Below are positions 33,536-48,389 of a stretch of 64,000 bases of DNA, one piece after another (position 1 is the first letter of the stretch; each line of letters begins with the position of its first letter). The DNA is from a virus. Both the position numbers and the translations under genes were made by a program. The notes below the pieces were generated by a model. The model was not told the origin of the DNA, did not search any database, and saw only the letters and a program-made list of their open reading frames with translations. The DNA is taken from positions 3,893 to 67,892 of IMG/VR virus record IMGVR_UViG_3300022682_000033; one strand, given 5' to 3'.

Positions 33536-33540
33536 GGTGG

Positions 33541-34521: not shown

Positions 34522-34522
34522 G

Positions 34523-34553
34523 CCGGAATCTTCCGGTTAATCGCTGGTTATAT
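34523..34553 (+). repeat. Cassette-run leader motif (half-attC/attI-like), copy 1
   Basis: CCGGAATCTTCCGGTTAATCGCTGGTT; copies at 36246, 37693 and 40071. Confidence 0.7.
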
Positions 34554-34565
34554 GGAGGGAAAACA

Positions 34566-34790
34566 ATGATTTCAGACAAACTATATAGTGAACTCGAAAA
34601 AATGAAATGGAACGGCGGTGTTTACGGAGTTAGCCCAAAAGGACCTGCAAATAATGCGGTATGGTCACATTTACAGGATGCCGTTGATATTGGAAGCATA
34701 TCACCGATGGATGCGTATGACGCACTAAAACTTGGGTATTTGCCCGAACATTTGACGGTTCGTAAATCAAGATACGCACATTTATTATAA
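34566..34790 (+). CDS. Cassette ORF, hypothetical
   Basis: GGAGG RBS; stop codon within the attC R'' core. Confidence 0.6.
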   Translation: MISDKLYSELEKMKWNGGVYGVSPKGPANNAVWSHLQDAVDIGSISPMDAYDALKLGYLPEHLTVRKSRYAHLL

Positions 34791-34842
34791 CCTGTCATTC
34801 CAGCGGACCTAAAAAGCCGGCCGCTGAATTCAAACGTTATCA
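34785..34842 (+). repeat. attC-like site
   Basis: TTATAAC...ATTCCAGCGG/CCGCTGAAT...GTTATCA. Confidence 0.8.
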
Positions 34843-34940
34843 TGCTATCGAGATAGGGTCGCCACCGAAAAGCAAGTATCCTGTTCTTGTCTGCTCGATA
34901 GCTCATTAAAAACAGGAAACCCTGAACAGGAGGAGTCCTT

Positions 34941-35303
34941 ATGATTACGTATTTAGAAACAACACAGCCGAATTGGAAACCGTTTGAAGCAATTATCGCA
35001 CAAGTAACGCCTGATATTATCCAGTCGTCTCCGTTTCCACTATTCCAGAGAGATCCAGAATATTTTCTTCATGATTTTATGCACATGGGAACAATCACGG
35101 ATTCGTATTTACCAGAAAAACAGATAGAGATTTACAAACATTGTGATACGAGGCGGTGTTTGAATATTGATAATAGCGGACAATGTTATGCTTTCGGGTC
35201 AAAGGTTCTTGATGAAACGAAAGATCCCTGGGATGATGGATATGATGAGAGCATCTACACCCCCATTGAAACACAGTCGGCATTATGGATCGCATTATCG
35301 TAG
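34941..35303 (+). CDS. Cassette ORF, hypothetical
   Basis: AGGAGG RBS; cassette ends GTTATCAT/ATGATAAC. Confidence 0.65.
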   Translation: MITYLETTQPNWKPFEAIIAQVTPDIIQSSPFPLFQRDPEYFLHDFMHMGTITDSYLPEKQIEIYKHCDTRRCLNIDNSGQCYAFGSKVLDETKDPWDDGYDESIYTPIETQSALWIALS

Positions 35304-35310
35304 TCAGCAA

Positions 35311-35432
35311 TGATAACAATGCGTTTGCAGCCGACGCAAGCCCGCGCCCGCTGTAAAGCGCATCGTCATAAATAGCGTCGTCTCACCGCGCATGTCCTGT
35401 GTGGCTTGCGCGGCTGAAACGCGGCGTTATGC
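35311..35432 (+). repeat. attC-like site (long)
   Basis: TGATAACAATGCGTTTGCAGCCG...CGGCTGAAACGCGGCGTTATGC. Confidence 0.85.
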
Positions 35433-35506
35433 CGCAGTCGCCCAGTTGGCCGGGAGCACGTTTTGTAAGCGTGATGACGTCGGTTCGAATCCGACCTGCG
35501 GCTCCA
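35431..35506 (+). tRNA. tRNA-Thr(UGU), sole cargo of an attC cassette
   Basis: 76-nt cloverleaf: GCCGCAG/CTGCGGC acceptor, anticodon loop TTTGTAA, GTCGG-TTCGAAT-CCGAC T arm, encoded CCA; one D-stem mismatch. Confidence 0.85.
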
Positions 35507-35562
35507 TAACCCACCGCTCAAGCGGACGCAAAACAGCCGCGCCGCTTAATTGATCGTTAGCA
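35504..35562 (+). repeat. attC-like site
   Basis: CCATAAC...TCAAGCGG/CCGCTTA...GTTAGCA. Confidence 0.8.
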
Positions 35563-35586
35563 ATTTCAGAGGGGAAGGAGAAGACT

Positions 35587-35892
35587 GTGCCTATCAGACC
35601 TGAAAATAAGATGAGATATCCAAAAGATTGGAAAACCAGATCCAGATTTATACGGTTTTTCCGTGCCAAAAATCATTGCGAATGGTGCGGCGCTGAAAAC
35701 TACAAACCTCATCCGATTACAGGTTCAAAAGTGGTTCTCACCTGCGCCCATGTTTATGATCACAGGCCAGAAGCATCTAACTTGCTAAACCTTGCGGCAC
35801 TGTGTCAGAGATGCCACAATCGGCATGATGCCGGTTTGCGACGCAGTGAGCGCAGAAAAAGGCTTAATGCCAATCAACTGGAATTGTTTTGA
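35587..35892 (+). CDS. HNH-fold protein
   Basis: CEWC...AH..H...NLAALCQRCHNRHD. Confidence 0.75.
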   Translation: MPIRPENKMRYPKDWKTRSRFIRFFRAKNHCEWCGAENYKPHPITGSKVVLTCAHVYDHRPEASNLLNLAALCQRCHNRHDAGLRRSERRKRLNANQLELF

Positions 35893-35915
35893 CAAGCTAT
35901 AATAAGATCAGCCCG

Positions 35916-35945
35916 GTAGGGTGGGCGCGGGTGTTTGCGCCCACC
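35916..35945 (+). repeat. GTAG-family REP-like palindrome
   Basis: GTAG-GGTGGGCGC-loop-GCGCCCACC. Confidence 0.5.
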
Positions 35946-36147
35946 ACATCAAAACCGAACTATGATTTGTAGGATTTCAGAATTAATAGGATTAAGAGCT
36001 AAAAAAATGTCTATAGAATATAAATTAAGATCAAATGGAAAAACAAAATGTGAAAATCTTGATTGCGGCCGAACGATTTTATTAAACGAGGAATACGTAG
36101 TTGTAGAATTTAAAAACATTACCATAAAACTATGCAAAAAGTGCGCA

Positions 36148-36203
36148 TCTTAACCCATCTCTCCACCGGTCTAAAACCCGCGCCGGTGAGCTAATCGTTG
36201 AAC
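36148..36203 (+). repeat. attC-like site
   Basis: TCTTAAC...CTCCACCGG/CCGGTGAG...GTTGAAC. Confidence 0.75.
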
Positions 36204-36245
36204 GTTGAATGTTGAAAGTTGAACGTTCAACATCCAAACAAAAAC

Positions 36246-36269
36246 CTTCCGGTTAATCACTGGTTGGAC
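36246..36269 (+). repeat. Cassette-run leader motif, copy 2 (5'-truncated)
   Basis: CTTCCGGTTAATCACTGGTT. Confidence 0.65.
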
Positions 36270-36341
36270 GCCTTAAACGTGGTGAGGTTAGTTTTCCAAG
36301 CACGGTGCGTTTATCATAAAAAAACTAAATACCTCCGTGCC

Positions 36342-36397
36342 GCCCAACCAACCATACAAGCTGACGAAAAACACCGCTGCTTAACTAATCGTTGTGA
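36342..36397 (+). repeat. attC-like site (degenerate)
   Basis: GCCCAAC...CAAGC/GCTTA...GTTGTGA. Confidence 0.65.
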
Positions 36398-36404
36398 GGA
36401 GAAC

Positions 36405-36653
36405 ATGCAAATAATAAATACGGTTGAAATAATATGTATGAATTGTGAGAAACAATTATCGGTGGAATATCCAGGCCCAAAGCTACAAAACGGGAAGTGG
36501 ATATTCAGGGTGCTACCGTTCTGCGATAATTGCGCAGCACAACCCAACACTCAAGCGGAATCGCCGCCGTCAGTCGATCACGGTGTTCCGTGTTCTAAAT
36601 GCGGTGCAACTGATAACTGGATTTGCCTTTGCGAAATGCGGCAATCCGATTAG
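36405..36653 (+). CDS. Cassette ORF with CxxC pairs, reading into its attC
   Basis: GAGGAG RBS immediately after the GTT core. Confidence 0.5.
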   Translation: MQIINTVEIICMNCEKQLSVEYPGPKLQNGKWIFRVLPFCDNCAAQPNTQAESPPSVDHGVPCSKCGATDNWICLCEMRQSD

Positions 36654-36666
36654 TTCTATGTTATAT
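36537..36666 (+). repeat. attC-like site (long, degenerate)
   Basis: GCACAAC...TCAAGCGGA/TCCGATTAG...GTTATAT. Confidence 0.6.
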
Positions 36667-36719
36667 GCCTATGAAATGCGAACAACGCGCCGCCGCCTAA
36701 TTAAACATTCAACCACACA

Positions 36720-37133
36720 ATGACGAAAAACGAACTAAAAACAGTAGCCTTGCTCGCATTTGCAAAGGCAACACTCGAAAAAATTGGCAATTGCAAAAAC
36801 GCTGAAAATATTGTAGTAAGTGCTATGGACCAGTGGCCTGCCTTAGAACAGAAAAACGTTAATACGTTTTGCCGCTGGTTTGAGGCGTTTGAAAGGCAAA
36901 CATGGAATGGCGAATTGCAAGACCAATTTGTTAATTTGAGTTTTTCAATCGCTATTTTGGATGACATTTCAACATACTTTTCAGGTAAAAAACTTGGCCT
37001 GGTTGAAGATGTTATAGATTCACTTTCGAGATTGTACTATGAAAAAATAGAAAATCAGAATGACCATGAGGTTAATGAGAGCGCGGCTAATGCCGCCAAT
37101 GCATGGAGAAATATAATCAATGACGACTATTGA
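36720..37133 (+). CDS. Hypothetical protein
   Basis: ORF in a tightly packed run. Confidence 0.5.
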   Translation: MTKNELKTVALLAFAKATLEKIGNCKNAENIVVSAMDQWPALEQKNVNTFCRWFEAFERQTWNGELQDQFVNLSFSIAILDDISTYFSGKKLGLVEDVIDSLSRLYYEKIENQNDHEVNESAANAANAWRNIINDDY

Positions 37134-37368
37134 AATTTGTGATATATGCGGGAAGAAATGTGATAACAGATTGTTTTTTAGAACCGATAGAGCAATGGAC
37201 GCCGCCGGCAGTATGGAAGATGAAGGCGAAGTTTACGACCTGTGCGAAATACATGAGAACATGGTTTTAAAAAAAGTGCTTTTTAAAGGCACAAATGAAA
37301 TTGAAAAGCAAAATATAAACAAACGGCTTGTGATGGAAGTCGAAAATTTGAAAAAAAGTAAGGAGTAA
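37120..37368 (+). CDS. Small Cys-containing hypothetical protein
   Basis: CDICG...DLCEIH; GGAG RBS. Confidence 0.5.
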   Translation: MTTIEICDICGKKCDNRLFFRTDRAMDAAGSMEDEGEVYDLCEIHENMVLKKVLFKGTNEIEKQNINKRLVMEVENLKKSKE

Positions 37369-37371
37369 AAA

Positions 37372-37710
37372 ATGGTAAATTTGAAACCGGCATGGAAATC
37401 AATCGAAGGTCAAGGTTCAAGCGGTGTGATTGGTGTTTTGCTGTACTTTTTGAATGACGTTTTGTCAGGAGAAAGGTTCAGCAAAAATATTGTTGAACTG
37501 TTACAATCCATAGCAGGTACGATGGATTTTGACAAAATATTCTTGATCCAAGAAATTGCAACAATCGTAAAGACAGGTTTAATTCTTACAGCGGTTTGTT
37601 TTGTGCTGTTCAAGCTTGTAGAGCACCGGTCTTATTTGAAAAACGATGCGATCAAGGCAGCAGAGAACATCGAAATAGCAAAGATGAACACACCGGAATC
37701 TTCCGGTTAA
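37372..37710 (+). CDS. Membrane protein (holin-like candidate)
   Basis: Two hydrophobic segments; AAGGAG RBS; near the endolysin. Confidence 0.4.
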   Translation: MVNLKPAWKSIEGQGSSGVIGVLLYFLNDVLSGERFSKNIVELLQSIAGTMDFDKIFLIQEIATIVKTGLILTAVCFVLFKLVEHRSYLKNDAIKAAENIEIAKMNTPESSG

Positions 37711-37723
37711 TCACTGGTTAGAA
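37693..37723 (+). repeat. Cassette-run leader motif, copy 3
   Basis: CCGGAATCTTCCGGTTAATCACTGGTT. Confidence 0.7.
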
Positions 37724-37732
37724 AGCTTTTTT

Positions 37733-38449
37733 ATGAATAATTATTTATCATTCGGAGGCGGTGTCAATTCGGTAGCCTTGCACTTGTATTTGCTGAAGCA
37801 AGGCACTCAGTTTGAATCTGTGTTCGTTAATCATGGCGAAGATTGGCCCGAAACATACGAATATGTTAATATGTTTCAATCCTGGCTGAAGAAAAACGGA
37901 CATAGCCCAATAACCGTTTTGACTCCAAATATCAATGGATCAACAGATATTTATAATTACTGTGATAAATACGCAATGATCCCTTCCAGGATGAAAAGAT
38001 GGTGCACAGAAAAATTCAAAATACGGGCCTTGAAAAAACACTATCAAAAACCTTGCTTTGCCTTCATCGGTTATGATTTTGATGAGGTAAAACGGGCCAA
38101 AATTGTTCATGAAAAAGGCGTAGAAAAACGGTTTCCGTTAATTGAAGCTGAAATCACAAGGGCAGGTTGCAAAGATATAATAAAAAAAACAGGCTTGCCA
38201 GTTCCAATGAAATCAGGTTGCTATTTCTGCCCCTTCCAGCGGATAGGGCAATGGAAAGAGTTGAGACGTAAACACCCTGACCTGTTTTGCAAAGCAAACA
38301 AACTCGAACAAAAAACCAATGCAGACCGTAAGCGCAGGGGAAAATCAGAAATATATTTAATACATAAACCTTTACGGCTTGTTGTTGATGAAAAACAACG
38401 GCCTTTATTTGAAATTGATGCACTGCCTCCATGTGAGTGCGCTTTCTAA
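37733..38449 (+). CDS. PAPS-reductase-family PP-loop protein (cassette-borne)
   Basis: YLSFGGGVNS, RWCTEKFKI, RFPL, KSGCYFCPF. Confidence 0.8.
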   Translation: MNNYLSFGGGVNSVALHLYLLKQGTQFESVFVNHGEDWPETYEYVNMFQSWLKKNGHSPITVLTPNINGSTDIYNYCDKYAMIPSRMKRWCTEKFKIRALKKHYQKPCFAFIGYDFDEVKRAKIVHEKGVEKRFPLIEAEITRAGCKDIIKKTGLPVPMKSGCYFCPFQRIGQWKELRRKHPDLFCKANKLEQKTNADRKRRGKSEIYLIHKPLRLVVDEKQRPLFEIDALPPCECAF

Positions 38450-38541
38450 CCAGTCGCTCAACCGGAGCCATACTGTCACCGCTTTTGCAAAGGACAGCAA
38501 AAGCAGTGACAGCATGTCCCGGTTAGCTTAAATCGTTATAT
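38444..38541 (+). repeat. attC-like site
   Basis: TTCTAAC..GCTCAACCGG...CCGGTTAGC..GTTATAT with a long central hairpin. Confidence 0.85.
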
Positions 38542-38555
38542 TTTTTGGGGGATCA

Positions 38556-38741
38556 ATGGATAAAAAAATTGTCTATGGTGCTGTCCAGTGGATAAAAAAA
38601 GACATGCCGATATTAGACGGAATGCCTGCGTTTGAAACTAAAGAAGAGTGTTTGGAATATATTAACCGACACCAAACAAATCTTGGCGTATCAGAATGGA
38701 CAATTGTTAGGGTTGAAATAAAAATCACCGATAAAAATTGA
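38556..38741 (+). CDS. Hypothetical protein
   Basis: ORF directly after an attC core. Confidence 0.5.
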   Translation: MDKKIVYGAVQWIKKDMPILDGMPAFETKEECLEYINRHQTNLGVSEWTIVRVEIKITDKN

Positions 38742-38752
38742 GGAGACAACTT

Positions 38753-39235
38753 ATGCAAACGCAAACAGTTGAATTTAGTCGTGGATATGAAAAATTCAAA
38801 CTTGTTTTCCCTACAAGAGTAAAGATACCTTTCGAAGAAGTTGAAATGTACCCGGACTTCTGAGGCCCCGGAAACGCATGGGGGGACAGGTTGGTTCCCG
38901 AAGAAATGTGGGGTTTAAAAATTTCGGTTGCGTGCTTTTGCCATGACCTTATGTGGGCGATTGCGACGTTGAATGAGGACGAGTTTATTTCACTAAATGT
39001 GGTTTTTCTATCAAACATTGCAACGATCAACGCCCATTGCTCATCCAGCAAAATCTTATCCGCGTTACGGATGTACAGGGCGGCAACATATATGAATGCG
39101 GTTGGGTTGCCAGGTTGGGAGATTTTCAAACGCGATAAACTCAAACCGGTTTCACATCACATTGAAAAATATATTGATGACGATCTTGTCATTGAAATAA
39201 ACAAAAGAGCGGAGTGTTTAAGAAATGCAATTTAA
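38753..39235 (+). CDS. PLA2-like protein with an in-frame TGA (38861-38863): recoded or pseudogene
   Basis: GAGGAG RBS + ATG at 38753 in frame with ORF 38891; F*GPG...LVPE.MWGL.IS.ACFCHD. Confidence 0.55.
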
Positions 39236-39755
39236 TGAAATGCTTTTCGCGATGGCGGCAAGGTTCACGCTGTCCGAACGCATAGAGGGCGGATACGTCG
39301 ATGATCCTGACGATAGGGGCAGAGAAACGAAATACGGCATATCGAAGCGAAGCTATCCAAACGTAGATATAAAAAATCTCACAAAAAAGGATGCAATCGA
39401 AATATACAAACGAGATTATTGGGATGTTAATCGGACAGGTGAGATGCCCGTTACAGTTGGAATAGTGCTGTTTGATAGCTCCGTTTTATTCGGCCCGTCA
39501 AGACCCTCCAAATGGCTTCAGACGGCTTGTAATCTTTCAAGGTATGGTGATATAGCTGTCGATGGAGTTATAGGCCCAAAAACGATCTCAGCGGCTATGT
39601 TGGCAAGCGAGGCAAGTATTGTAGAAAACATGATTGCAATTCGGATAAAAGCTCACACTGACGACGTAAAAGAGAATAGGAAACAAATCAAATTCTTGCG
39701 TGGGTGGATGAATCGTATCAGTGAGCTTCTGAAATATATCGCAAAGATAAGGTGA
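39225..39755 (+). CDS. Endolysin, glycoside hydrolase family 108 with PG-binding domain
   Basis: EGGYVDDPDDRGRETKYGI, DGVIGPKT, KFLRGWMNR. Confidence 0.9.
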   Translation: MQFNEMLFAMAARFTLSERIEGGYVDDPDDRGRETKYGISKRSYPNVDIKNLTKKDAIEIYKRDYWDVNRTGEMPVTVGIVLFDSSVLFGPSRPSKWLQTACNLSRYGDIAVDGVIGPKTISAAMLASEASIVENMIAIRIKAHTDDVKENRKQIKFLRGWMNRISELLKYIAKIR

Positions 39756-39760
39756 AAAAA

Positions 39761-40069
39761 ATGAGCAAAACGTTAAAAATTATATTGGTATTGATGGTAT
39801 CCGTACTGTTTTTCGGATGTCAAAAAAAGCATGTTAGGACGCAACCAATAGACGTTCCGAACATAGGCGTTACTTATATCTTGACCGAATCAAATATTGG
39901 GACACGAAGCATCACAATTTACGGCAGGCTGTATAAAAGCGGTCTCCAAATTTACGGCTTCCACATAGGCCAAAAAATAAAAACGATGGACAACAGGACT
40001 TTTGAGTGGGTCGGATGCGATAACAGGAATTATGCTAATGGGTGGGTCGAAATTGATCCTATAAAATAA
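39761..40069 (+). CDS. Putative lipoprotein
   Basis: Signal peptide with FFGC lipobox; follows the endolysin. Confidence 0.5.
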   Translation: MSKTLKIILVLMVSVLFFGCQKKHVRTQPIDVPNIGVTYILTESNIGTRSITIYGRLYKSGLQIYGFHIGQKIKTMDNRTFEWVGCDNRNYANGWVEIDPIK

Positions 40070-40070
40070 G

Positions 40071-40101
40071 CCGGAATCTTCCGGTTAATCACTGGTTATG
40101 C
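40071..40101 (+). repeat. Cassette-run leader motif, copy 4
   Basis: CCGGAATCTTCCGGTTAATCACTGGTT. Confidence 0.7.
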
Positions 40102-40116
40102 GTAAAAGGATTTACT

Positions 40117-40344
40117 ATGGAATGCCAAAAATGTGGCAGAGAAAAAATATTCTGTGAACAGGCAATTACAGGGTTCCCAGACTATCATGTTGCCGGAAGC
40201 ATAGTTGAATATTGTGGTTTTTGCGACGAACCTCCAATTACCGCATTAAATCCTGGAGGTCGCAAAATTATTTTACAGCATAACCAGTCGCCGCTTAACT
40301 CAAACGTTAGCTGTATTGGTAGGGTTGATTTGAATGTACATTGA
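40117..40344 (+). CDS. Cassette ORF, zinc-ribbon-like
   Basis: CQKC and CGFC; AAGGA RBS. Confidence 0.5.
   Translation: MECQKCGREKIFCEQAITGFPDYHVAGSIVEYCGFCDEPPITALNPGGRKIILQHNQSPLNSNVSCIGRVDLNVH
40278..40312 (+). repeat. Internally deleted attC-like site (35 bp)
   Basis: GCATAACCAGTCG-CCGCTTAACTCAAACGTTAGCT. Confidence 0.6.
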
Positions 40345-40702
40345 TAAATTCAAAAAAGATGGTGGGTATTATTCCGAAGATGGTTGTTTCTACGAATCAT
40401 CAGAAGATTTTATTCAGTGTGAAATTTTAGGTTTTTGCGGTTGTGGTAATCCGGAATGTAATCTTGAATTTATAATGAATGGGTTGAAATATATTAATGA
40501 TCCACAACCAGAAGATCGTTCCAAGTTTGATGAGTGGATAGAAGATGGTATGAAGCTGTTCGGAAGCGAAGGCGCAAAATATTTCTTTTTTTATTGGGCT
40601 GATAAAGAAGGGTTGGCAGAACACGGTGGTTCAGTTCCTGGATGGCTTACTGAAAAAGGCGCGCAGTTATTGTCAGACTTAAAAGAAATTCACAACAGCT
40701 AA
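40334..40702 (+). CDS. Cassette ORF, hypothetical (FCGCG...EHG...WLTEKG)
   Basis: Cassette ends GTTAGCTG/CAGCTAAC; stop codon in the R'' core. Confidence 0.65.
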   Translation: MYIDKFKKDGGYYSEDGCFYESSEDFIQCEILGFCGCGNPECNLEFIMNGLKYINDPQPEDRSKFDEWIEDGMKLFGSEGAKYFFFYWADKEGLAEHGGSVPGWLTEKGAQLLSDLKEIHNS

Positions 40703-40788: not shown

Positions 40789-40800
40789 TCTGGTGAAAAA

Positions 40801-41603: not shown

Positions 41604-41633
41604 AAACCAAACAATACGATATGAATTTATTAA

Positions 41634-43667
41634 ATGTCAACAAAAATACCAAGTTCAAAAATTGAATCGATGTGGCGAAACCTTGATCCGGAAATTAAGG
41701 CAGATTGGATACAGACCGCCATTGTGAATTATAATGTTCCTCGTAATGTTGCAGAAATAAAAGCCGTCGAGTTGTTCTGGGAAGCAGAAAATGCAAAAAG
41801 CAAAATGGCTGAGTATCAATCAGGCCCAGAAGGATGTATCCGCTGGATTAATGATAACATATACCAAAAGGTGATCCCGTATGGCGGGCATGTCCATCAA
41901 TGGGTTCCGATGGGAGAATTGCCAACAAAAAAAGATAAATATGGCAGGTCATACAAAACTATGTGGGAGGCTCAGCAAAAGGTTATTATGGAAGCCCTTG
42001 CCGTTGATAGCACCGGAACTTATAAGCATAACCTGATAGCTCTCGTTTGGCCTCGTGGCCTTGGAAAAAGTTTTCTCGCGGTGTGCATTGGGCTTTATCG
42101 TTTTATTTGTTTCAGCTATCAAAAAGTTTATTTCAGCGCGAATAGCTACGATGAGAGTGACGAGTTGCATTTCAGTGAGGCGAAAACGCTTCTTCTTAAT
42201 AGTCCTGTCTTGTGTGAAATAATAGGTGAAAATAACATACTATCAAATAAAATTAGATTCGTTGCCGGTGATAAAAATGTAATGAATGAGATAAAAATAA
42301 TATCTCAAAAACGCGGCATTGTTTCTAATGCTGCTGTTGTGACTCAAACAGAGGTTTTTAAACAAGAATCCGATACTTTTTTTGCTCAATGGTATGGAAG
42401 TTTGAGGATGACACATAATGCGCTTGGTATAATTGATTCAACCGTGTCAGACAAAAGCCATTGGCTATATCGTCTGTATAGAAATGCAAAAAAAGACCCT
42501 GGTGGGCCAGTATATTTCAACTACTATGGATGGGAGGACGCTAAGGCAAAATATTTCTGGCACCCTGGGATGACAGATCGTGATCTGGCCGGCTTTAAAA
42601 CAGCAATGTCCAGACGGGACTTTGACAGATATTATAATAACCTATGGGGGAAACAAGGGGTTGGGTTATTTGACAATATTGATATTGGCGCAATTGGATA
42701 TTTTGGGGCAAATGGAGTCCCGATATGCCATGAGGTTGTTAAGGATACACTGAAAAGGGCAAATAAGAAATCGCAGCGCATTGTGGTTCAGCAACTTCAA
42801 CAACAGCCTACGAGGCGCCAGGAGGTCGCAGCCGAATTGATTGGGTCTCTCATGCCGGTGGAAGACTTTTATTCTCTCGGCCAGCATTCGTTCGACAAAG
42901 AAACGACCATACGAAGGCCATCCATTATGCCGGGAATGAAAGAGGCCAGAAAGATAACCGATGCGCTGCAAACAAATTTGTTCTCTTTGCTGGTTGGTAT
43001 TGACCGTGCGGAACCAAACAAGTTCAGCACCACTGGTGCAAAAACAGTCGTGTCTTGGATGATTAAAGTTCCGGCCGGTGAAATGTTTACAGGATTCGCG
43101 GAAGACCCGTATATGTACGTTCTTTTCGGTTTGGCGGTAGTAGAAAATTCTATGAGCCACCCGATTATTACACTGTTGTCCGAAATACATAATTGTATGG
43201 GGATTGATTTTTTGTGTGGGGATCGATATAACTTTAGTGAGATATCGCCATGGTGTGATCAAAATGGAATCAAGTGGAGGTCTGTAAACCCGACGCTTGA
43301 AATTCAGAGGCAGGGGTTCGGGTTGTTTATCCGAGCCGTAAACAACGGTCTGTTTAAGGCTCCTCCAATGCCGGTAGCAGGTGTCACTCAAGCTGATATC
43401 TTGAGAGAAGAGCTTTCTGTGTTTGACGAGCTTGGGAAGCACAAGCAAACAGGCGTTTCAAAATACGGAAGCCCACAAAAACACAAAGCAAACGGTATTC
43501 AGGACGACGCTATGGATTCAATCGGGATCGGTATGTTTGGCGGGATGGGCATTACAAAAGCCCACATGATCGACAAGTTTGCTCAAAAGAAAAGCAGCCT
43601 ACCATATCTGAAAATGATCAATGGCCCGGCTTCCATTCAGGACACATACTCGTCTTTGTATATGTAA
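41634..43667 (+). CDS. terL: Terminase large subunit
   Basis: Walker A WPRGLGKS, R.Y.N.W linker, nuclease motifs VGID, GDRY and QDDAMDS. Confidence 0.75.
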   Translation: MSTKIPSSKIESMWRNLDPEIKADWIQTAIVNYNVPRNVAEIKAVELFWEAENAKSKMAEYQSGPEGCIRWINDNIYQKVIPYGGHVHQWVPMGELPTKKDKYGRSYKTMWEAQQKVIMEALAVDSTGTYKHNLIALVWPRGLGKSFLAVCIGLYRFICFSYQKVYFSANSYDESDELHFSEAKTLLLNSPVLCEIIGENNILSNKIRFVAGDKNVMNEIKIISQKRGIVSNAAVVTQTEVFKQESDTFFAQWYGSLRMTHNALGIIDSTVSDKSHWLYRLYRNAKKDPGGPVYFNYYGWEDAKAKYFWHPGMTDRDLAGFKTAMSRRDFDRYYNNLWGKQGVGLFDNIDIGAIGYFGANGVPICHEVVKDTLKRANKKSQRIVVQQLQQQPTRRQEVAAELIGSLMPVEDFYSLGQHSFDKETTIRRPSIMPGMKEARKITDALQTNLFSLLVGIDRAEPNKFSTTGAKTVVSWMIKVPAGEMFTGFAEDPYMYVLFGLAVVENSMSHPIITLLSEIHNCMGIDFLCGDRYNFSEISPWCDQNGIKWRSVNPTLEIQRQGFGLFIRAVNNGLFKAPPMPVAGVTQADILREELSVFDELGKHKQTGVSKYGSPQKHKANGIQDDAMDSIGIGMFGGMGITKAHMIDKFAQKKSSLPYLKMINGPASIQDTYSSLYM

Positions 43668-43720
43668 CGATTGAAGCCAGCGGCGCGGGGTTTTGCGTCC
43701 GGTGGATTGAATGGTTATGT
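43662..43720 (-). repeat. attC-like site overlapping the terL stop codon
   Basis: Minus strand ACATAAC..TCCACCGGACGCAAAACCCCGCGCCGCTGG..GTTACAT. Confidence 0.75.
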
Positions 43721-43835
43721 GCCGCCTGGAATTGAACCAAGACCGGGACACCTTCACGAACCGTCATTTAAGGCGGAGTCGAACCGCCAGGATCTCCCGT
43801 GTTCATGACCACTGCACCTGCTGTGGGTCAAGCAC
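43719..43835 (-). ncRNA. tRNA-like pseudoknotted RNA A (cassette cargo)
   Basis: Closing stem, D-like arm, two T-loop hairpins, crossing helices; same topology as 47772-47897. Confidence 0.65.
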
Positions 43836-43860
43836 ATAACGATTGAACTAACCGGCGCAC
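43834..43860 (-). repeat. 3' half of an attC-like site
   Basis: Minus strand GCGCCGGTTAGTTCAATCGTTATGT. Confidence 0.6.
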
Positions 43861-44058
43861 AACGCATTAATTAGTAGATTATCCTACGTAGCGCCTTTTC
43901 CGTTGGAATCCACGCCCAATCTCCAATCCTACGTCGCAGAAGTCCGAGTCTGTACAGGTCAATTTTGATTTGTTTCCAGCATTTCGCGCGGATCATTCGA
44001 TCATCACCTTTGGAAATTATGTGCCGCAACGCCTTTTTATGTTCGACTGAAAGATGTG

Positions 44059-44340
44059 TCATTTTATTGTGCCGCTTGGCATCAATCGGTAATACAAAGT
44101 TTTTGGAATGCACAGGTCGTCTGCGATATCTTTTTTACTCATTCCGCCAGCAAGCTTTCTTTTTATAGCCATTTTAAGGCACTCATGCTGCTTTCTGACG
44201 GCGTTCTTGTATGCACCCATCATTTGCACCGTGGTATATTGCGCGATACGTTGTCGTGACCGTCCTAAGATTCTCGCGCAATCAGCTTGCGGTATGCCTT
44301 CGGCCAGCATTTTTGATATGGTTTCTTTTGTGACTTCCAT
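44059..44340 (-). CDS. HTH DNA-binding protein
   Basis: GIPQADCARILGRSRQRI and GMSKKDIADDLCIPKTLYYR. Confidence 0.6.
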   Translation of the reverse strand: MEVTKETISKMLAEGIPQADCARILGRSRQRIAQYTTVQMMGAYKNAVRKQHECLKMAIKRKLAGGMSKKDIADDLCIPKTLYYRLMPSGTIK

Positions 44341-45110
44341 TAAGGCAACGCCTTTCGATATTTGCATAGTAAATTTTTATCTTCTTTAAGGTTTTGCTCA
44401 AATTGGTTTATTACGTCAACATGATATGCATTTACGGTATCCCATTCACTATCAGTTTTTATTTTTCTGATTTCGAATCCAAGAAAATTGGATAGATTAG
44501 TTAATTTTTTCCCTATTTGTTGGTAAGCAGGTTTGGGTTTGATTCTTAGATCGAAGTATTTTCGCAGCCAAGGGATTGCCTTTACCGTTTTGTATTTTTC
44601 GCCGTCCCCTAATTTTTCTTTTAGCTTTTTGTTCTGCCTTGACAATACGGATGCTGTAGCCATTGCCGTGGCCGTTTTCTTGTTGTTGATATGTGCCTTT
44701 GTTCTTATCGCCTCATCCCGTTGAGCAAAGGCAAGTTGTTTTTGATCGTAAATATCTGCCCACGCCCTGGCAGCCTCGGATGGATTTGTAAAGTCAGGTA
44801 TTGCAACCTGGTTTTTCATTAACTCGGATTCGAGTTCTTCAAGCATGTCTACTATTTTAGCACGAAGCGGAATAGAATAACCGGAAACAAGAATGATAAC
44901 CTCTCTCTTTGGAAGCAAGTAACAATTCTGTTCTCTGCCATAGCTGTCTTTATAGATGTGCCCAAAAATGGGCACATCTTTTCCGTGTAATTCAAGCAAC
45001 ATACGTTCAGCGTCTCTTTTTACATGCCTGTGTTCTTTTCCTGTTCGTTGAGCGATTTCAACCGTTGTCATAGCAATTTTATTTGTATTCGGTTTTGTTA
45101 CTTCATTCAT
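44340..45110 (-). CDS. Rha-family regulatory/antirepressor protein
   Basis: MTTVEIAQRTGKEHRHVKRD, LVSGYSIPLRAKI, PDFTNPSEAARAWAD. Confidence 0.85.
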   Translation of the reverse strand: MNEVTKPNTNKIAMTTVEIAQRTGKEHRHVKRDAERMLLELHGKDVPIFGHIYKDSYGREQNCYLLPKREVIILVSGYSIPLRAKIVDMLEELESELMKNQVAIPDFTNPSEAARAWADIYDQKQLAFAQRDEAIRTKAHINNKKTATAMATASVLSRQNKKLKEKLGDGEKYKTVKAIPWLRKYFDLRIKPKPAYQQIGKKLTNLSNFLGFEIRKIKTDSEWDTVNAYHVDVINQFEQNLKEDKNLLCKYRKALP

Positions 45111-45111
45111 T

Positions 45112-45297
45112 TCAACCCTCCTTTTGGTCATCATCTTTAAAACAATTCAATGCGATTATCGCACCCGCAACCATGTGCATGATAATATGAGATATCCAAA
45201 TTAAATCAAGTTCGGGCTCGATGCCCAATAAAACAGTATCTACAAATGTTGTTGTAAAAGCAAAAGCCATAACAATTACCACATGTTTCATAATCAC
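45112..45297 (-). CDS. Small membrane protein
   Basis: Two hydrophobic segments. Confidence 0.4.
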   Translation of the reverse strand: MIMKHVVIVMAFAFTTTFVDTVLLGIEPELDLIWISHIIMHMVAGAIIALNCFKDDDQKEG

Positions 45298-46108
45298 ACC
45301 TTATCATTATTAATTTCGGTTATGTTAAGTAATTTTTTCACGCCCGGAATGAAAGTTATCATCCGGTCAACGCATACGCAGCAGAGCTTTCTTCTTGGTT
45401 CATCCTCTATCCACGAATCAACATAGTATGCAACCGGGTGTTTTGAGCATGCTTCGCAATATCCAGCTTTCATTTCAGATTCCTTTCTTAATTTTGGTAG
45501 CAATGGCGCAATTCCGCAACCCGTTGAACACACACACCTGAAAAAGCATGTGCATTGAGGCTGGTATGACCTAACCTCTGGCATGATTGCATGAAAGAAA
45601 AGAGTTTTAAAAAATTTTCGTCGATTTTTTCATGCAACCAAGCGTACTACCAGATTTACCAGGGTACCTTTTAGACTGGGCCAGCAGCTGAACACCCCAC
45701 CGATTAAATGCCGTGGTCGCGGTAAAACATGTGCGTGTATATTGGGAGTCTTTAAAAACGAATCCCATCCCTGTATATCCCGAAAACGGGCGAGCGGGTT
45801 GATCACTCGCCTGGCAGTAACTTCTTCCGGTTACTACTCAGGTTGCGTATTTTTGTGGCTGAAAGCATACCTTTTTAAAAAACAACGCTGCATAACAAAA
45901 AAAGCGCTTTTATGAGAGGGGGCGACTCCACAGGGAAAAAGTCGCCTCCAAGGTGGAATTGCCAAGGAAACCCTCTCATAAAAACGCTTTATGTTATTCC
46001 CTATGGATGTTTTAGCAATTGAACTCAGCGTTTTCCAGGCGCGTCATCGTTCAAAAACTGTCAAAAGATACAATTTGTTTTTGGCTCTGTCAAGTATAAA
46101 AATATCTA

Positions 46109-46297
46109 TCACTTGTTGGATAAAACTTCGGGATTTAGTTTCAAAAATTCTAATATCCCCTGAGCGACACCTTCTTTGATAGCTTTTTGGACGTTTATTT
46201 TGTTACCACCAGCCCACCATGATTTGTCTTGTTCTTCCAAAAATCTTAAAAAGGCGTGCTCAATTCCTTTTTTAACATCTCTTTGATTGATATCCAT
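46109..46297 (-). CDS. Hypothetical protein
   Basis: AGGAGGG RBS directly after an attC core. Confidence 0.55.
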   Translation of the reverse strand: MDINQRDVKKGIEHAFLRFLEEQDKSWWAGGNKINVQKAIKEGVAQGILEFLKLNPEVLSNK

Positions 46298-46937
46298 TAT
46301 TCCCTCCTAACGCCTCAAATAACCGGCGCGGCTTTTTGCGTCCGGTGCAGCGACTGGTTATGTGACGCATTATGTATTCGCCCAATTCTGGCAAAATACA
46401 ATTTCTTAGAACTTGTCGCTTGTTTTTAATCTTGGACTGAGCAACGACTTCATATTCGGCAAAGTCGGATATTTTGTTTTTACTTCTGATTTTTACCGGT
46501 TTAAAATCCATATGCGGTACGGTATCACTTGACCAAAATAAATGACGATGCAGAATGAATGACGGCTCGACCAACGGTGTATAGTAAGGTTTTGTATTTT
46601 CAACGACCCATTGCCCCTCGAAATATGTTTTCAGGAAAACGATCTGTGCATAAAGCGACATATCCGGCATTATTGGGTCAAAACCTTTTCCGATGACCCC
46701 GACATTGTGCCGATATTGTCCGTGACTTGGGCATGGTGGCGAAGCCCATATAAAATCATATTCGGCATAGTGTTTTTCAAGATAGTGCAGCGCATCACCA
46801 ACAATTACCGTATCATTTGGGTAAAGTAATTGGTAAACAGCTGCAATATCAGGATCAAGTTCAACAGCGGTCACATGATGCCATTTCCATAATTTACGAT
46901 TGCCGCCGATTCCTGCATATAAATTCAAAACTTTCAT
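46272..46937 (-). CDS. C5-cytosine DNA methyltransferase (short, cassette-borne)
   Basis: LNLYAGIGG, WASPPC, VVEN; reads through its attC. Confidence 0.85.
   Translation of the reverse strand: MKVLNLYAGIGGNRKLWKWHHVTAVELDPDIAAVYQLLYPNDTVIVGDALHYLEKHYAEYDFIWASPPCPSHGQYRHNVGVIGKGFDPIMPDMSLYAQIVFLKTYFEGQWVVENTKPYYTPLVEPSFILHRHLFWSSDTVPHMDFKPVKIRSKNKISDFAEYEVVAQSKIKNKRQVLRNCILPELGEYIMRHITSRCTGRKKPRRLFEALGGNNGYQSKRC
46305..46363 (-). repeat. attC-like site
   Basis: Minus strand ACATAAC..GCACCGGACGCAAAAAGCCGCGCCGGTT..GTTAGGA. Confidence 0.8.
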
Positions 46938-46959
46938 AAACACCTCCGATATTAAGTCA

Positions 46960-47018
46960 ATCTAACGTTTCAAATAACCGGCGCTGGGGTTTGCGTCCGG
47001 TTGAACAGATTGTTATGC
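46960..47018 (-). repeat. attC-like site
   Basis: Minus strand GCATAAC..TTCAACCGGACGCAAACCCCAGCGCCGGTTA..GTTAGAT. Confidence 0.8.
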
Positions 47019-47037
47019 TACATCATCCCGATTATAA

Positions 47038-47152
47038 ATGCGTCTCCGTGTGTCCAGCTTTCTCATCGCGGCAGCACGTCTGCTTGCCGGGGTGATATTG
47101 GTCTCGCACCGTCCCTCACCTGGGCCATCATAGCGCAGTGACGGAGACGCAT
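47038..47152 (-). ncRNA. Structured RNA C (ORF-less cassette)
   Basis: 12-bp closing stem ATGCGTCTCCGT/ACGGAGACGCAT with internal hairpins. Confidence 0.55.
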
Positions 47153-47212
47153 AACGGTTAAGCTAACCAACGCGCGGCTTTTTGCGCGTCCGGGTTTAGC
47201 GAATGGTTAGCC
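47149..47212 (-). repeat. attC-like site
   Basis: Minus strand GGCTAAC..GCTAAACC..GGTTAGC..GTTATGC. Confidence 0.75.
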
Positions 47213-47428
47213 GACAGCAGTTATTTCAGCAACGTCCGCAATAATATTTAATGCTGCCCTCAGTCCAGGCACATAAATTCGGTCACGCCTGAGATCATGT
47301 TCAATGTGATTGACGATTACAGACGATATATTCCCCAATGAGATTGAATCAACCAATCCCCAGGTGAACTGTTCTGGAAATTCCTCATTGTAGCTATCGT
47401 GATCCTTCACCTTCATGAATTCTCCCAT
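47207..47428 (-). CDS. Cassette ORF, hypothetical
   Basis: AAGGAG RBS; cassette ends GTTAGCC/GGCTAAC. Confidence 0.6.
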   Translation of the reverse strand: MGEFMKVKDHDSYNEEFPEQFTWGLVDSISLGNISSVIVNHIEHDLRRDRIYVPGLRAALNIIADVAEITAVG

Positions 47429-47442
47429 GAATTCTCCTTTCT

Positions 47443-47500
47443 GGCTAACGATTAGCTCACCGGCGCTGGGGTTTGCGTCCGGTGGAGCGATTGGTTATTT
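47443..47500 (-). repeat. attC-like site
   Basis: Minus strand AAATAAC..GCTCCACCGG..CCGGTGAGC..GTTAGCC. Confidence 0.85.
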
Positions 47501-47704
47501 ATTAATTGCCAATGGCTCAATATCTAAATTAATTGAAAACGCATATCCACAATCCTGACATTCCAGCGGTATGACAACAAAAAGATTTTTATTATCCGCG
47601 AAAAAAGGTTGATCCGAAATATTCCGTTTCAAATTATCACATCCACAATTAATGCAAAACGGATTAAGCTTTTCCGTAAATGTCACCTCATCCGTAGGTA
47701 TCAT
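47495..47704 (-). CDS. Cassette ORF, zinc-ribbon-like
   Basis: CINC and CQDC; stop codon in the R'' core. Confidence 0.6.
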   Translation of the reverse strand: MIPTDEVTFTEKLNPFCINCGCDNLKRNISDQPFFADNKNLFVVIPLECQDCGYAFSINLDIEPLAINK

Positions 47705-47714
47705 TTCAGTTCTC

Positions 47715-47773
47715 CAATAACGTTAATGATCACCGGCGCGGCTTTTTGCGTCCGCTCGAATGTCGGGTTATGT
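47715..47773 (-). repeat. attC-like site
   Basis: Minus strand ACATAAC..GCGGACGCAAAAAGCCGCGCCG..GTTATTG. Confidence 0.75.
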
Positions 47774-47897
47774 GCCGTCAGAATCGAACTGACCTCAACC
47801 AGGGTTTTCACCCTACGGCTATTTCACGATGCCGATTTGAACGGCCACCCCTGGTTTTCTTTTCCGCAGTTGCCAGTCACCAGTCTGGCTTGGGCAC
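47772..47897 (-). ncRNA. tRNA-like pseudoknotted RNA B (cassette cargo)
   Basis: GTGCC/GGCAC, D-like arm, crossing CTGCGG/CCGTAG and AACCAGGG/CCCTGGTT, two T-loop hairpins. Confidence 0.7.
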
Positions 47898-48023
47898 ATA
47901 ACGCCCGGGTCAGTTGCCTGGCGGTTAAAATTAAAACGGTGGCTTGCCGATGCAAACATGATCAAGCACTTCATTATCAAAAACCGCATCGCCCGCCCGG
48001 TCCACTGCACCTGCTTGTTGGGG
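47896..48023 (-). repeat. attC-like site (long)
   Basis: Minus strand CCCCAAC..GTGCAGTGG...CAACTGAC..GTTATGT. Confidence 0.65.
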
Positions 48024-48155
48024 GGCGTGTTGCGCTTCTCTGATAAGCCTTAATGCGGTCTGATGTCTGTTTTCATTCGGATATTTATTTTCAACTGCCA
48101 TTATTAGTTCGTAATAGCTTTCAAGCTGTTCAAACTCTTTCTCTTGAATTTCCAT
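47931..48155 (-). CDS. Cassette ORF, hypothetical, reading into its attC
   Basis: GGAGG RBS right after GTTGGGA; YYELIMAVENKYPNENRHQTALR. Confidence 0.55.
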   Translation of the reverse strand: MEIQEKEFEQLESYYELIMAVENKYPNENRHQTALRLIREAQHAPQQAGAVDRAGDAVFDNEVLDHVCIGKPPF

Positions 48156-48389
48156 AAAGCCTCCCAACAGTTTTGATAGACGGAAAACATTTCCGTCTAT
48201 TCAGATATTATTGTCAAATTTACGCAGACCTATTAAAGTCTCGCAAAAGTTCCTTGTATTTCGCCAATAGCAGATTGTATTTCTTATAAAGATTCAAATG
48301 TGAGTCAATAAGCGCCCAACTGTATTGGAAGTGCTTTAGTTTTCTCAGATGTTTCAAGTGACTCTCTTCCAATAATTTTGGTTTGTTTT

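Follow-up and report, generated by a model that had tools for sequence, protein, structure and literature searches.

The window analysed here, a stretch of 64 kb, belongs to a 67.9-kb IMG/VR virus record whose gene content is that of an uncultured tailed phage. The record is linear and rated 75% complete (CheckV). No host genes were seen in it and its sole tyrosine-recombinase-like ORF is a weak match; the label of prophage given in a first-pass annotation is not supported. The small genes of its accessory set, along with RNA genes, are boxed into cassettes by about 20 integron-type recombination sites (Table 1). The runs of these attC sites are separated by core phage genes and phage genes flank every run, bearing out the earlier description of cargo interleaved with the phage backbone.

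Table 1. Recombination sites, cassette contents and neighbouring backbone genes in the window.
Feature	Position	Strand	Evidence and remarks
Half-site S0 (small hairpin, spacer, GTT crossover point)	34523-34549	+	Alignment; heads first short array, directly after stop of Ant-like gene; bases past GTT match next R'' over 6 nt
attC A1	34785-34842	+	R1 66.9 bits, R2 34.2 bits; TAA in R'' ends ORF 34566-34790
int-alpA RNA motif	34846-34916	+	Rfam RF02996, 39.1 bits vs gathering score 35.8; in second cassette, upstream of ORF 34941-35303
Long attC A2 (122 nt)	35311-35432	+	R2 34.2 bits, E=1.3e-6, no R1 match; closes second cassette; 5' hairpin fold z -3.2; R'' matches R' of A1 over 8 nt
tRNA-Thr(UGU)	35431-35506	+	ARAGORN; Rfam tRNA 53 bits; sole cargo of 129-nt cassette
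attC A3	35504-35562	+	R1 66.8 bits, R2 30.5 bits
attC A4	36148-36203	+	R1 58.6 bits, no R2 match at E≤0.1; TAA in R'' ends ORF 35935-36153
Half-site S1 (20-nt core only, left arm different)	36246-36265	+	Next R'' matched over 5 nt
attC A5	36342-36397	+	R1 61 bits, R2 29.5 bits; closes 127-nt ORF-less cassette
Half-site S2	37693-37719	+	Overlaps end of ORF 37372-37710; heads PAPS-reductase cassette; 10-nt match to R'' of A8
PAPS-reductase-like gene, single-gene cassette	37733-38449	+	PF01507 E=6.8e-6; phrog_424 E=4e-36
attC A8, long variable hairpin	38445-38541	+	R1 30 bits, R2 21.2 bits; bottom-strand fold z -8.2; TAA in R'' ends 238-aa ORF
Endolysin (GH108 + PG_binding_3)	39225-39755	+	Pfam; backbone gene separating two short arrays
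Half-site S3	40071-40097	+	Directly after stop of ORF 39752-40069; 7-nt match to next R''
Truncated attC A10 (35 nt)	40278-40312	+	R1 22.7 bits, E=1.2e-3, no R2 match at E≤0.1; ORF 40117-40344 reads through
attC A11	40697-40788	+	R1 30.1 bits, R2 32.9 bits; R'' matches R' of A10 over 9 nt
RecU-type Holliday junction resolvase	41112-41603	-	PF03838, phrog_843; backbone between convergent runs
Large-terminase-like gene	41634-43667	+	phrog_2; backbone between convergent runs
attC B6, last site of - run	43662-43720	-	R1 71.6 bits, R2 36.3 bits; abuts end of terminase-like gene
ORF-less tRNA-like RNA cassette	43717-43840	-	Fold z -1.0, not significant; 9-nt match between ends
Partial attC before RNA cassette	43834-43884	-	R1 15.5 bits, E=0.13
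C5-cytosine-methylase-like ORF	46272-46943	-	PF00145 residues 3-80, phrog_363; N-terminal part alone matches; reads through attC B5
attC B5	46305-46363	-	R1 68 bits, R2 43.1 bits
attC B4	46960-47018	-	R1 68.4 bits, R2 32.5 bits
ORF-less cassette, long closing stem (RNA candidate)	47015-47155	-	Fold z -0.8, not significant; 7-nt end match
attC B3	47149-47212	-	R1 49.9 bits; R2 17.3 bits, E=0.06
attC B2	47443-47500	-	R1 75.5 bits, R2 41.9 bits; bottom-strand fold with two single-base bulges on one arm
attC B1	47715-47773	-	R1 64 bits, R2 28.5 bits
ORF-less tRNA-like RNA cassette	47770-47902	-	Acceptor-like, D-like and T-like arms; fold z -1.9; no ARAGORN call
Possible long attC (weak)	47896-48023	-	R2 17.1 bits, E=0.07; R'' matches R' at 48168 over 6 nt
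Hairpin + spacer + GTT heading - run	48165-48210	-	Reading and alignment; sequence unlike S-type
attC D1, third run	53324-53385	+	R1 30.4 bits, R2 23.9 bits
attC D2, third run	53814-53880	+	R1 25.5 bits, R2 21.6 bits; directly upstream of gene 53896-54909 (phrog_3657)
Only tyrosine-recombinase-like ORF in record	58844-59761	-	PF00589 17.2 bits, E=1.3e-4; phrog_216 E=2e-7

The attC sites are imperfect palindromes bounded by AAC...GTT, and two covariance models were used to find them. Model R1 (16 pairs) was trained on 10 sites, starting at 34785, 35504, 36148 and 36342 on the + strand and at 47715, 47443, 47149, 46960, 46305 and 43662 on the - strand, and was applied to both strands of the window with filters off. 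It returns 15 matches at E≤1.2e-3, all in the orientation of the genes around them: 9 on the + strand (7 at 34.8-40.8 kb, 2 at 53.3-53.9 kb) and 6 on the - strand (43.7-47.8 kb). The matches outside the training set start at 38445, 40278, 40697, 53324 and 53814 (all +). R1 is strand-specific, with site B6 scoring 71.6 bits on the - strand and 10.2 on the +. Model R2 was derived from a bacterial source alone, namely 8 attC sites next to intI in an Alcanivorax MAG. At E≤5.2e-3 it recovers 13 of these phage sites and gives no match in the rest of the window; it also adds the two long sites on the + and - strands, the latter weakly. In the R1 training alignment 87.4% of cells are paired, and shifting the partners by 1-3 columns lowers this to 23-45%; both sides have changed at 4 pairs. 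Among the full sites whose bottom-strand DNA was folded, the single-base bulges always fall on the same arm, and at 6/15 sites a TAA inside R'' terminates an ORF of at least 75 codons. These sites are integron-type attC arranged as cassettes. Both strands of this single phage carry them, in at least six short arrays, with 15 model-supported sites and additional partial ones. The attC-like sites reported by the first-pass annotation are present at the positions given, beyond chance. It had described two convergent runs within 34523-48200; both strands do carry sites and the runs do lie there, but the supposed + run is really four short arrays with backbone between them, and the third run at 53.3-53.9 kb had been missed. 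The sites at 40278-40312, 46305-46363 and 43834-43884 are truncated, read through by an ORF or decayed, states that fit fossil arrays as well as active ones. A hairpin at 45894-45999 resembles a terminator more than an attC.

The first bases of a cassette complement the inverse core at its other end, overall far beyond chance. Over 17 consecutive pairs, the perfect-match sum between R' and the R'' of the next site is 112, compared with 72.2±4.7 after shuffling, and this value was never reached in 100,000 shuffles (maximum 98). Without the three tRNA or tRNA-like cassettes the sum is 87 vs 56.5±4.1 (0/100,000), and restricting it to the 8 pairs with model support at both sites gives 50 vs 35.9±3.0 (7/100,000). 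R' and R'' within one site match over just 3-5 nt. The earlier statement that cores co-vary thus holds overall, but in 4/17 pairs the match is limited to the shared first 3-4 bases. Besides its attC, each cassette, 130-820 nt long, contains a single small ORF, a single tRNA or an RNA-like stretch with no ORF. Their G+C content (0.39-0.46) equals that of the backbone (0.42) and so carries no mark of recent import. Most earlier cargo calls were recovered, namely the C5-methylase-like and PAPS-reductase-like genes, the tRNA and the ORF-less RNA-like cassettes; the zinc ribbons had been read by eye and no family was matched. The three ORF-less cassettes on the - strand gave no Rfam match (for 43717-43840, at E≤1).

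Four of the short + arrays are each headed by a near-identical half-site of 20-27 nt (S-type). The 20-nt core occurs in 4 copies in the window, 3 of them exact and S0 with 1 mismatch; it was found in none of the loci compared with ≤3 mismatches allowed. In an integron, attI is the double-stranded primary insertion site. S-type half-sites may resemble it, as a lead only: they stand at the head of an array, end in GTT, are conserved where attC vary and are followed by the bases of the first cassette. Unlike attI, they have no adjacent intI or Pc promoter, are present in four copies rather than one, and look like the 3' half of an attC with a small hairpin.

The same site family is found in cellular genomes and in other viruses. 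A pattern scan across bacterial and archaeal genomes located it in at least 120 stretches. Among the matches listed, 77/80 loci have R1 matches, several with 3-6 sites, part of each R1 match being given by the construction of the pattern. Of five such genomes, four have an IntI that exceeds the NCBIfam cut-off. The Alcanivorax MAG (G006) carries a canonical, complete integron, in which intI at C2:5644-6579 (-) precedes an array of six R1 sites, all in one orientation, at C2:8190-12607. The sites of this integron reach 43-50 bits with R1, and phage sites reach 21-43 bits with R2, the model derived from the integron, so both belong to one attC family. In contrast to the phage, an IntI (387.7 bits, above the NCBIfam cut-off) lies beside the Alcanivorax array. 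In the phage record, rated 75% complete, TIGR02249 gave 0 candidates, in agreement with the earlier claim that an integron integrase is lacking; because of this incompleteness, such a gene could lie in the missing part of the genome. The PAPS-reductase cassette gene has homologues with 55-62% identity, and R1 sites occur near them in 14/80 metagenome loci and 9/77 viral loci, a few contigs being common to both collections. At 7 of the 14 metagenome loci, a same-strand site begins ≤5 nt from the end of the homologue. A distant phage relative, G011 (terminase-like protein 31% and portal 32% identical), carries a six-site array with a PAPS-reductase gene as a cassette. This cassette gene is present in arrays elsewhere. 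No close relative of the phage was found in the collections searched.

Taken together, the region is best read as CALINs (clusters of attC sites with no integron integrase nearby) in an uncultured tailed phage, with cassettes joined by IntI-type recombination, most likely by a host IntI in trans (probability about 0.75). Cassettes were probably joined singly, by recombination of the integron-integrase type at G|TT, since past every GTT come bases that pair with the inverse core closing that cassette. The likeliest recombinase is an integron integrase encoded by the host, which would act in trans on phage DNA in single-stranded form, in the course of infection or lysogeny. Joining may have occurred within the phage genome by this host IntI and may still be ongoing, and the phage would then both draw on and feed the environmental cassette pool.

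It is unlikely that the arrays are instead fossils, that is, pieces of a host chromosomal integron copied en bloc by illegitimate or homologous recombination, static and merely transcribed, with no integrase acting. The truncated, decayed or read-through sites would suit such an origin, as would the absence of cognate matching in 4/17 pairs and the composition shared by cassettes and backbone. No excision product or recombination joint was seen in the one sequencing run with related DNA (X1; short contigs, 85-95% likeness), and illegitimate recombination is discussed as an entry route in Qi et al. (2023, PMC9892861). However, copying en bloc does not readily account for arrays that stand at six or more distinct locations, use both strands and always follow the direction of the phage operon around them, nor for one half-site heading four arrays with bases past its GTT that are cognate to the next R''. 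Some of the cargo is phage-typical (PAPS reductase phrog_424, methylase phrog_363, tRNA), and the distant relative has a different array with the same cassette gene.

A recombinase of the phage's own is a far less probable agent. The candidates would be the divergent ORF at 58844-59761 and some gene encoded in the quarter of the genome that the record lacks; a recombinase-like ORF does exist, and the record is incomplete. However, the PF00589 score of this ORF is under the Pfam cut-off, hmmscan against Pfam gave no match, there is no PDB relative, and the catalytic Arg and His positions seem replaced (by eye only). It was rejected as an integron integrase for want of a TIGR02249 match. Nor does any IntI exceed the cut-off in 10 further viral records with attC sites, of which three are rated 100% complete. 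Hardly credible are the proposals that the sites are regulatory hairpins or terminators of the phage, or that assembly fused a phage and a bacterial integron into one chimeric contig. The attC sites are indeed hairpins positioned after stop codons, and two S-type hairpins are terminator-like when read on the opposite strand, but terminator-like sites occur at chance level (24 vs 19±4), and terminators would explain neither the cassette-specific end matching nor the fit to R2, a bacterial-integron model. In favour of a chimera, about 20 kb separate the terminase-like gene from the portal gene, an arrangement that G011 does not share. Against this, every run has phage genes to its left and right, phage genes also occupy the intervals from one run to the next, and backbone pieces from within the region, including 39078-39319 at the endolysin gene, are covered by a related population in run X1.

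CALINs in phages are already known from Qi et al. (2023, Front Microbiol, PMC9892861), whose survey reports 17 of them in 10,705 NCBI phage genomes and who showed that IntI1 recombines phage-borne attC sites. The present phage is therefore a large multi-array case and not a new kind. As described there, the published phage CALINs also combine attC in a phage genome with no phage integrase, an ORF-then-attC order, DNA-methylase cargo and a GTT-motif hairpin at the array boundary; site directions diverge in some phages, several ORFs lie between sites in others, and bacterial integrases are proposed to act on the sites. The examples shown have about 2-3 sites (TJE1: 3 attC, 4 ORFs), whereas this phage has 15 plus partial ones in at least six arrays. 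It also differs in its repeated half-site heading four arrays and in its tRNA and ORF-less RNA-like cassettes, the term 'tRNA' being absent from the main text of that paper. Bacterial CALINs and sedentary chromosomal integrons, as presented by Cury et al. (2016, PMC4889954), share the definition of two or more attC without a nearby intI and a cargo that is mostly unknown. The attC of one bacterial CALIN likewise resemble each other, and the proposed origins include secondary-site insertion by an integrase encoded elsewhere. Those elements reside on chromosomes, whereas the present set is carried by a virus, has its arrays distributed over different operons and consists of very short cassettes (130-820 nt). 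With 83% of CALINs having <6 sites and 6.6% having >10 (Cury et al., 2016, PMC4889954), the phage set falls at the large end, a large example of a kind first reported in phages in 2023.

Reading both strands of the window reveals a repeated element, 50-90 nt long, with AAC at one boundary and GTT at the other. In an alignment of the ten clear copies, mean column identity is 69%, the AAC and GTT columns are invariant, and the R-box pairs formed by the outer repeats R'' (ending AAC) and R' (starting GTT) are 100% paired. The inner repeats, L'' and L', form helices 2 and 3, which are 78% and 88% paired and show changes on both sides at three pairs. Under the hand-drawn structure (R box, spacer, L box and inner helix, the last two each with one unpaired base), 87.4% of cells are paired and four pairs in all show changes on both sides; sliding the 3' partners by 1-3 columns lowers the paired share to 23-45%. 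The unpaired columns of the alignment, 16 and 28, both lie on the 5' arm of the top strand, and full sites folded as bottom-strand DNA are predicted to carry single-base bulges on one and the same arm. In attC recombination, strand choice is set by extrahelical bases that lie on a single arm when the bottom strand folds.

A covariance model built from these ten sites (R1), run with filters off over the entire window and both strands, gives 15 hits at E<=1.2e-3, all spanning the full model and all on the same strand as the local genes; the first 4.5 kb of the record are free of hits. Five hits lie outside the training set (38445, 40278, 40697, 53324 and 53814, all +). Recognition is strand-specific: the site at 43662-43720 scores 71.6 bits on the - strand and 10.2 on the + strand. 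The first-pass annotation had placed two convergent runs of attC-like sites at 34523-48200. The observation is confirmed with corrections; two hits at 53.3-53.9 kb fall outside that region. The length of attC varies through its central hairpin, from about 55 to 140 nt; most hits measure 56-64 nt, two 92-97 nt and two 122-128 nt, and one shortened site of 35 nt is outside the usual range. At 6 of the 15 sites, an ORF of 75-253 codons has its stop in a TAA within R''. Over 34001-54000, terminator-like sites (24 vs 19+-4) and promoter-like sites (46 vs 47.9+-7.3) are at chance level. The hairpin at 45894-45999 was considered as a long attC and rejected, since its folding z of -9 and the T-run that follows it make a terminator more likely. 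Between this hairpin and the next gene lie about 370 nt without a convincing ORF (45520-45890, -), a stretch that could form a structured RNA or have a regulatory role.

Whether these units are true attC sites or look-alikes can be judged against bacterial integrons. The conserved-core pattern also occurs in bacteria and archaea, with at least 120 matching genome stretches; among the matches listed are many Desulfobacterota MAGs, together with KSB1, Planctomycetota, Alcanivorax, Shewanella and some archaeal MAGs. Full-length R1 hits occur in 77 of 80 loci among the matches listed (counted by hand), several with 3-6 sites, an agreement that arises partly by construction because the pattern fixes about one third of the model positions, the 3' half not being fixed. 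Integron integrase (IntI) above the NCBIfam TIGR02249 cut-off is encoded by four of five pattern-bearing genomes compared with 0 of 14 control genomes. One of these five genomes, the Alcanivorax MAG G006, has a textbook integron, with intI at C2:5644-6579 (-) and, after it, six R1 sites at C2:8190-12607 that share one orientation. A second model, R2, trained only on eight sites of this bacterial array, is the nearest stand-in for a check with the IntegronFinder attC model, and no attC family appears in the gathering-threshold scan of the window. At E<=5.2e-3 R2 recovers 13 phage sites, and at E<=0.1 the number rises to 15; it matches no further place in the 64 kb on either strand. It adds a weak long site at 47896-48023 (-) and reads 35311-35432 as one long site, so that an earlier division of 35310-35430 into two adjoining sites was dropped.

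Opening a circular cassette at G|TT leaves, behind the upstream GTT, bases that derive from the R' formerly paired with the R'' of that cassette's attC. In 17 consecutive site pairs, the upstream R' matches the reverse complement of the downstream R'' perfectly over 6, 8, 6, 5, 5, 10, 7, 9, 6, 10, 6, 7, 7, 4, 4, 9 and 3 nt. The sum, 112, compares with 72.2+-4.7 when downstream partners are shuffled (maximum 98) and is reached in 0 of 100,000 shuffles, which upholds the earlier claim that the first bases of each cassette complement its own last bases. The result holds (87 vs 56.5+-4.1, 0 of 100,000) without the three cassettes that carry a tRNA or a tRNA-like RNA, where acceptor stems could contribute pairing, and for the eight pairs in which both sites are model-supported (50 vs 35.9+-3.0, 7 of 100,000). 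The rejected hairpin at 45894-45999, which matches over only 4 nt, was retained among the 17 pairs as a conservative inclusion. Matches of 5-10 nt are counted in 13 of the 17 pairs, and four pairs, one of them in an initial reading, are without the footprint, at only 3-4 nt; R' and R'' within one site match over only 3-5 nt. Cognate end matching is an indirect sign that the sites may have recombined at G|TT. Together with the recovery of the sites by a model of a bacterial array, it supports the proposal that they are integron-type attC sites in cassettes, and the arrays are very probably genuine attC cassette arrays within a phage genome.

The + run consists of four short arrays, each headed by a half-site made of a small hairpin, a 10-nt spacer and GTT. 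The window has four copies of the half-site's 20-nt core, three of them exact and the fourth with a single mismatch; 27 nt are common to three copies, and the core occurs within 3 mismatches at no other place in the loci compared. Because the bases after the half-site GTTs match the next R'' over 6, 5, 10 and 7 nt, the half-sites either were crossover points or are remnants of full sites that were. Backbone genes separate the + arrays: three ORFs at 36720-37710 and a lysis region at 38556-40069 that includes the endolysin gene. The - run, from 48.2 to 43.7 kb, leads toward the terminase-like gene. Besides six strong sites it has one partial and one weak long site, and its hairpin-plus-GTT head differs from those of the + arrays.

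Features of the phage record (window coordinates unless labelled otherwise)
Feature	Position	Strand	Remarks
Head maturation protease	L248:3022-4485		coordinates of locus L248
Major head protein	1945-3159
Tape measure	14589-17825
Ant-like anti-repressor	33691-34521
int-alpA RNA motif	34846-34916	+	RF02996, just above gathering score; in cassette, upstream of 120-aa ORF
Cassette region with tRNA-Thr(UGU)	35426-35562		tRNA gene complete with encoded CCA; sole content of 129-nt cassette
GH108 endolysin	39225-39755
RecU-type resolvase	41112-41603	-
Large-terminase-like protein	41634-43667	+
ORF-less cassettes (three)	47770-47902, 43717-43840, 47015-47155	-	171-188 nt; 54-57% G+C
Rha regulator	44340-45134	-
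HTH repressor-like gene	50482-51579	-
Tyrosine-recombinase-like ORF	58844-59761	-	only one in record; PF00589 17.2 bits, below cut-off; PHROG integrase family E=2e-7
tRNA-Ser(UGA)	63863-63948	+	52 nt from record end

The cargo agrees in part with what the first-pass annotation had listed. It includes a PAPS-reductase-like gene (PF01507; phrog_424), a C5-methylase-like ORF whose family match is confined to the N-terminal part and which reads through its own attC, and RNAs, namely the tRNA-Thr and the RF02996 motif. Neither the 120-aa ORF downstream of that motif nor the other small ORFs of the cargo have a family match. The G+C content of the protein cassettes equals that of the backbone. The three ORF-less cassettes are candidate RNA genes: they are predicted to fold into tRNA-like or long-stem structures, two of them with acceptor-like, D-like and T-like arms. 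ARAGORN does not call them, no Rfam family matches at E<=1 over 43600-48300, and their fold z of -0.8 to -1.9 is not significant. The literature searched yielded no report of tRNA or RNA-only integron cassettes, which is not proof of absence.

The source, an IMG/VR virus record (67,892 bases, of which 3893-67892 form the window; linear, 75% complete according to CheckV), is a tailed phage, which also encodes thymidylate synthase and an O-like replication protein. The gene at 8606-10165 matches methyltransferase PHROGs and that at 10312-11565 a PHROG of unknown function. Counted round the record, a portal-like gene (record bases 1503-3065) lies about 20 kb from the terminase-like gene, the pair being adjacent in the distantly related viral record G011; this separation points to a rearrangement, to an uncommon gene order or to a fault in the assembly. 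The description of the element as a prophage is not borne out, because no host genes are seen in the record, the tRNA-Ser gene near its end notwithstanding. This gene could be the remnant of an attachment site or a phage tRNA.

The PAPS-reductase cassette has counterparts elsewhere. At E<=1e-20 there are 820 homologues of its protein, with identities of 55-62% among the best. R1 sites are present in 14 of the best 80 metagenome loci with a homologue and in 9 of 77 viral ones, with at least two contigs common to both collections; these counts are lower bounds because R1 was trained on one site family. At seven of the 14 metagenome loci, a same-strand site starts within 5 nt of the end of the PAPS-reductase gene, as in the phage, and some loci have gene and sites in opposite orientation. 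On the metagenome contig L291, the homologue is one cassette of a dense array of nine R1 sites in 4.1 kb. The 64-kb record G011, related to the phage by its terminase-like (31%), portal (32%) and Ant-like (47% identity) proteins, likewise has the PAPS-reductase gene as one cassette of a six-site array (L406 8450-11250, -), which begins directly after the stop of a long upstream ORF and shows end matches, by eye, of 6, 8, 3, 5 and 10 nt. The G011 sites have a long, similar central hairpin in common, a likeness to sedentary integrons. The same gene, in the case of PAPS reductase, is therefore found as a cassette in different arrays. A loose core pattern adds R1 hits in 13 of 118 matched viral loci (12 of them full length), two of the 13 records being complete genomes with terminal repeats.

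No close relative of the phage was found in the collections searched. The search gave no GenBank phage match and no match among viral contigs, and a complete 67.5-kb phage with attC hits (G001), considered as a relative, proved unrelated. Among 5.8 billion proteins, the terminase-like protein has two homologues only, with 55% and 33% identity, the former traced to no viral or metagenome contig. A marine-sediment run contained 8% of sampled words; over 33001-53000 it yields 54 short contigs, mostly of 85-95% likeness and without joints, and this related population covers parts of the inter-array backbone and of the resolvase and terminase-like genes. Local BLAST against the loci compared finds a single match to a cassette ORF, the 101-aa ORF at 35587-35892 (46% in L091, a locus without an R1 hit). 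The non-cassette gene at 53701-54909 has a homologue in L053 (40%), also by local BLAST, and a homologue of the flanking gene at 48390-48935 adjoins an attC in L346.

The first-pass annotation had found no integron integrase, and TIGR02249 indeed returns 0 candidates in the 67.9-kb record. With 15 attC sites and no intI, the record fits the definition of a CALIN, an attC cluster lacking the integrase, which asks for at least two attC sites without intI close by; a complete integron has intI with its specific extra domain, attI and Pc beside the array, and the record has no IntI. By eye, the tyrosine-recombinase-like ORF appears to lack the catalytic arginines and histidines, these positions looking replaced, and no PDB relative of it was found; its product may be an inactive DNA-binding relative. 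No IntI scores above the cut-off in ten other attC-bearing viral records, three of them rated complete. Since none of these records has IntI above the cut-off, a host integrase acting in trans on the phage attC sites is the economical reading, one in line with what Qi et al. (2023) saw in their assays. We assign a probability of 0.75 to the full statement, attC arrays on a phage genome served by host IntI in trans. As for the host, the tRNA-Ser gene, searched in one phylum, that of the Desulfobacterales MAG G008, has matches in 255 of 301 genomes at E<=1e-10, the best of 99% in a genome that has IntI. This may weakly hint at a host from that phylum; the terminase-like protein was not found in 401 of its genomes or in five genomes with the best tRNA-Ser matches.

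A stronger reading, that of a 'phage integron', appears unlikely. The half-sites would be attI-like landing pads at which host IntI loads phage-adapted cassettes, at several chosen points in the phage operons, as a regular engine of accessory turnover. Integron recombination would then be regular rather than an occasional accident, and a pool of tRNA, tRNA-like RNAs, small Zn-binding proteins and DNA-modification genes would circulate among sediment phages and hosts. If, as in the preferred reading, host integrases act in trans on phage genomes, phages would sample and spread the environmental cassette pool, as proposed in PMC9892861. Their short accessory genes, including tRNAs and possible counter-defence genes, would be swappable as ready-made units. 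With its many sites, RNA-only cassettes and repeated heads, the phage is a good substrate for studying cassette entry without attI, the travel of RNA genes and phage 'morons' as cassettes.

The term CALIN was defined by Cury et al. (2016, PMC4889954); in 83% of the CALINs reported there the number of sites is below six, and insertion by an integrase encoded elsewhere is one of the origins listed. According to Qi et al. (2023, PMC9892861), 10,705 NCBI phage genomes contain 3 complete integrons, one In0 element and 17 CALINs, and IntI1 recombined five of six phage attC sites with attI1. Among the phage CALINs described there, methylases occur as cargo, sites can point in divergent directions, and one array has a hairpin with GTT at its boundary. 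For attC sites of uncultured viral contigs, the literature searched contained no survey, which is not proof of absence. The positive viral loci, 13 of 118 by pattern and 9 of 77 by PAPS reductase, suggest that uncultured viruses hold many more cases than the 17 from isolates. Since phage CALINs have already been published, the present arrays belong to a known kind; the points of interest are their size, the presence of several arrays inside phage operons, a head site that recurs, and cassettes that are RNA-only.
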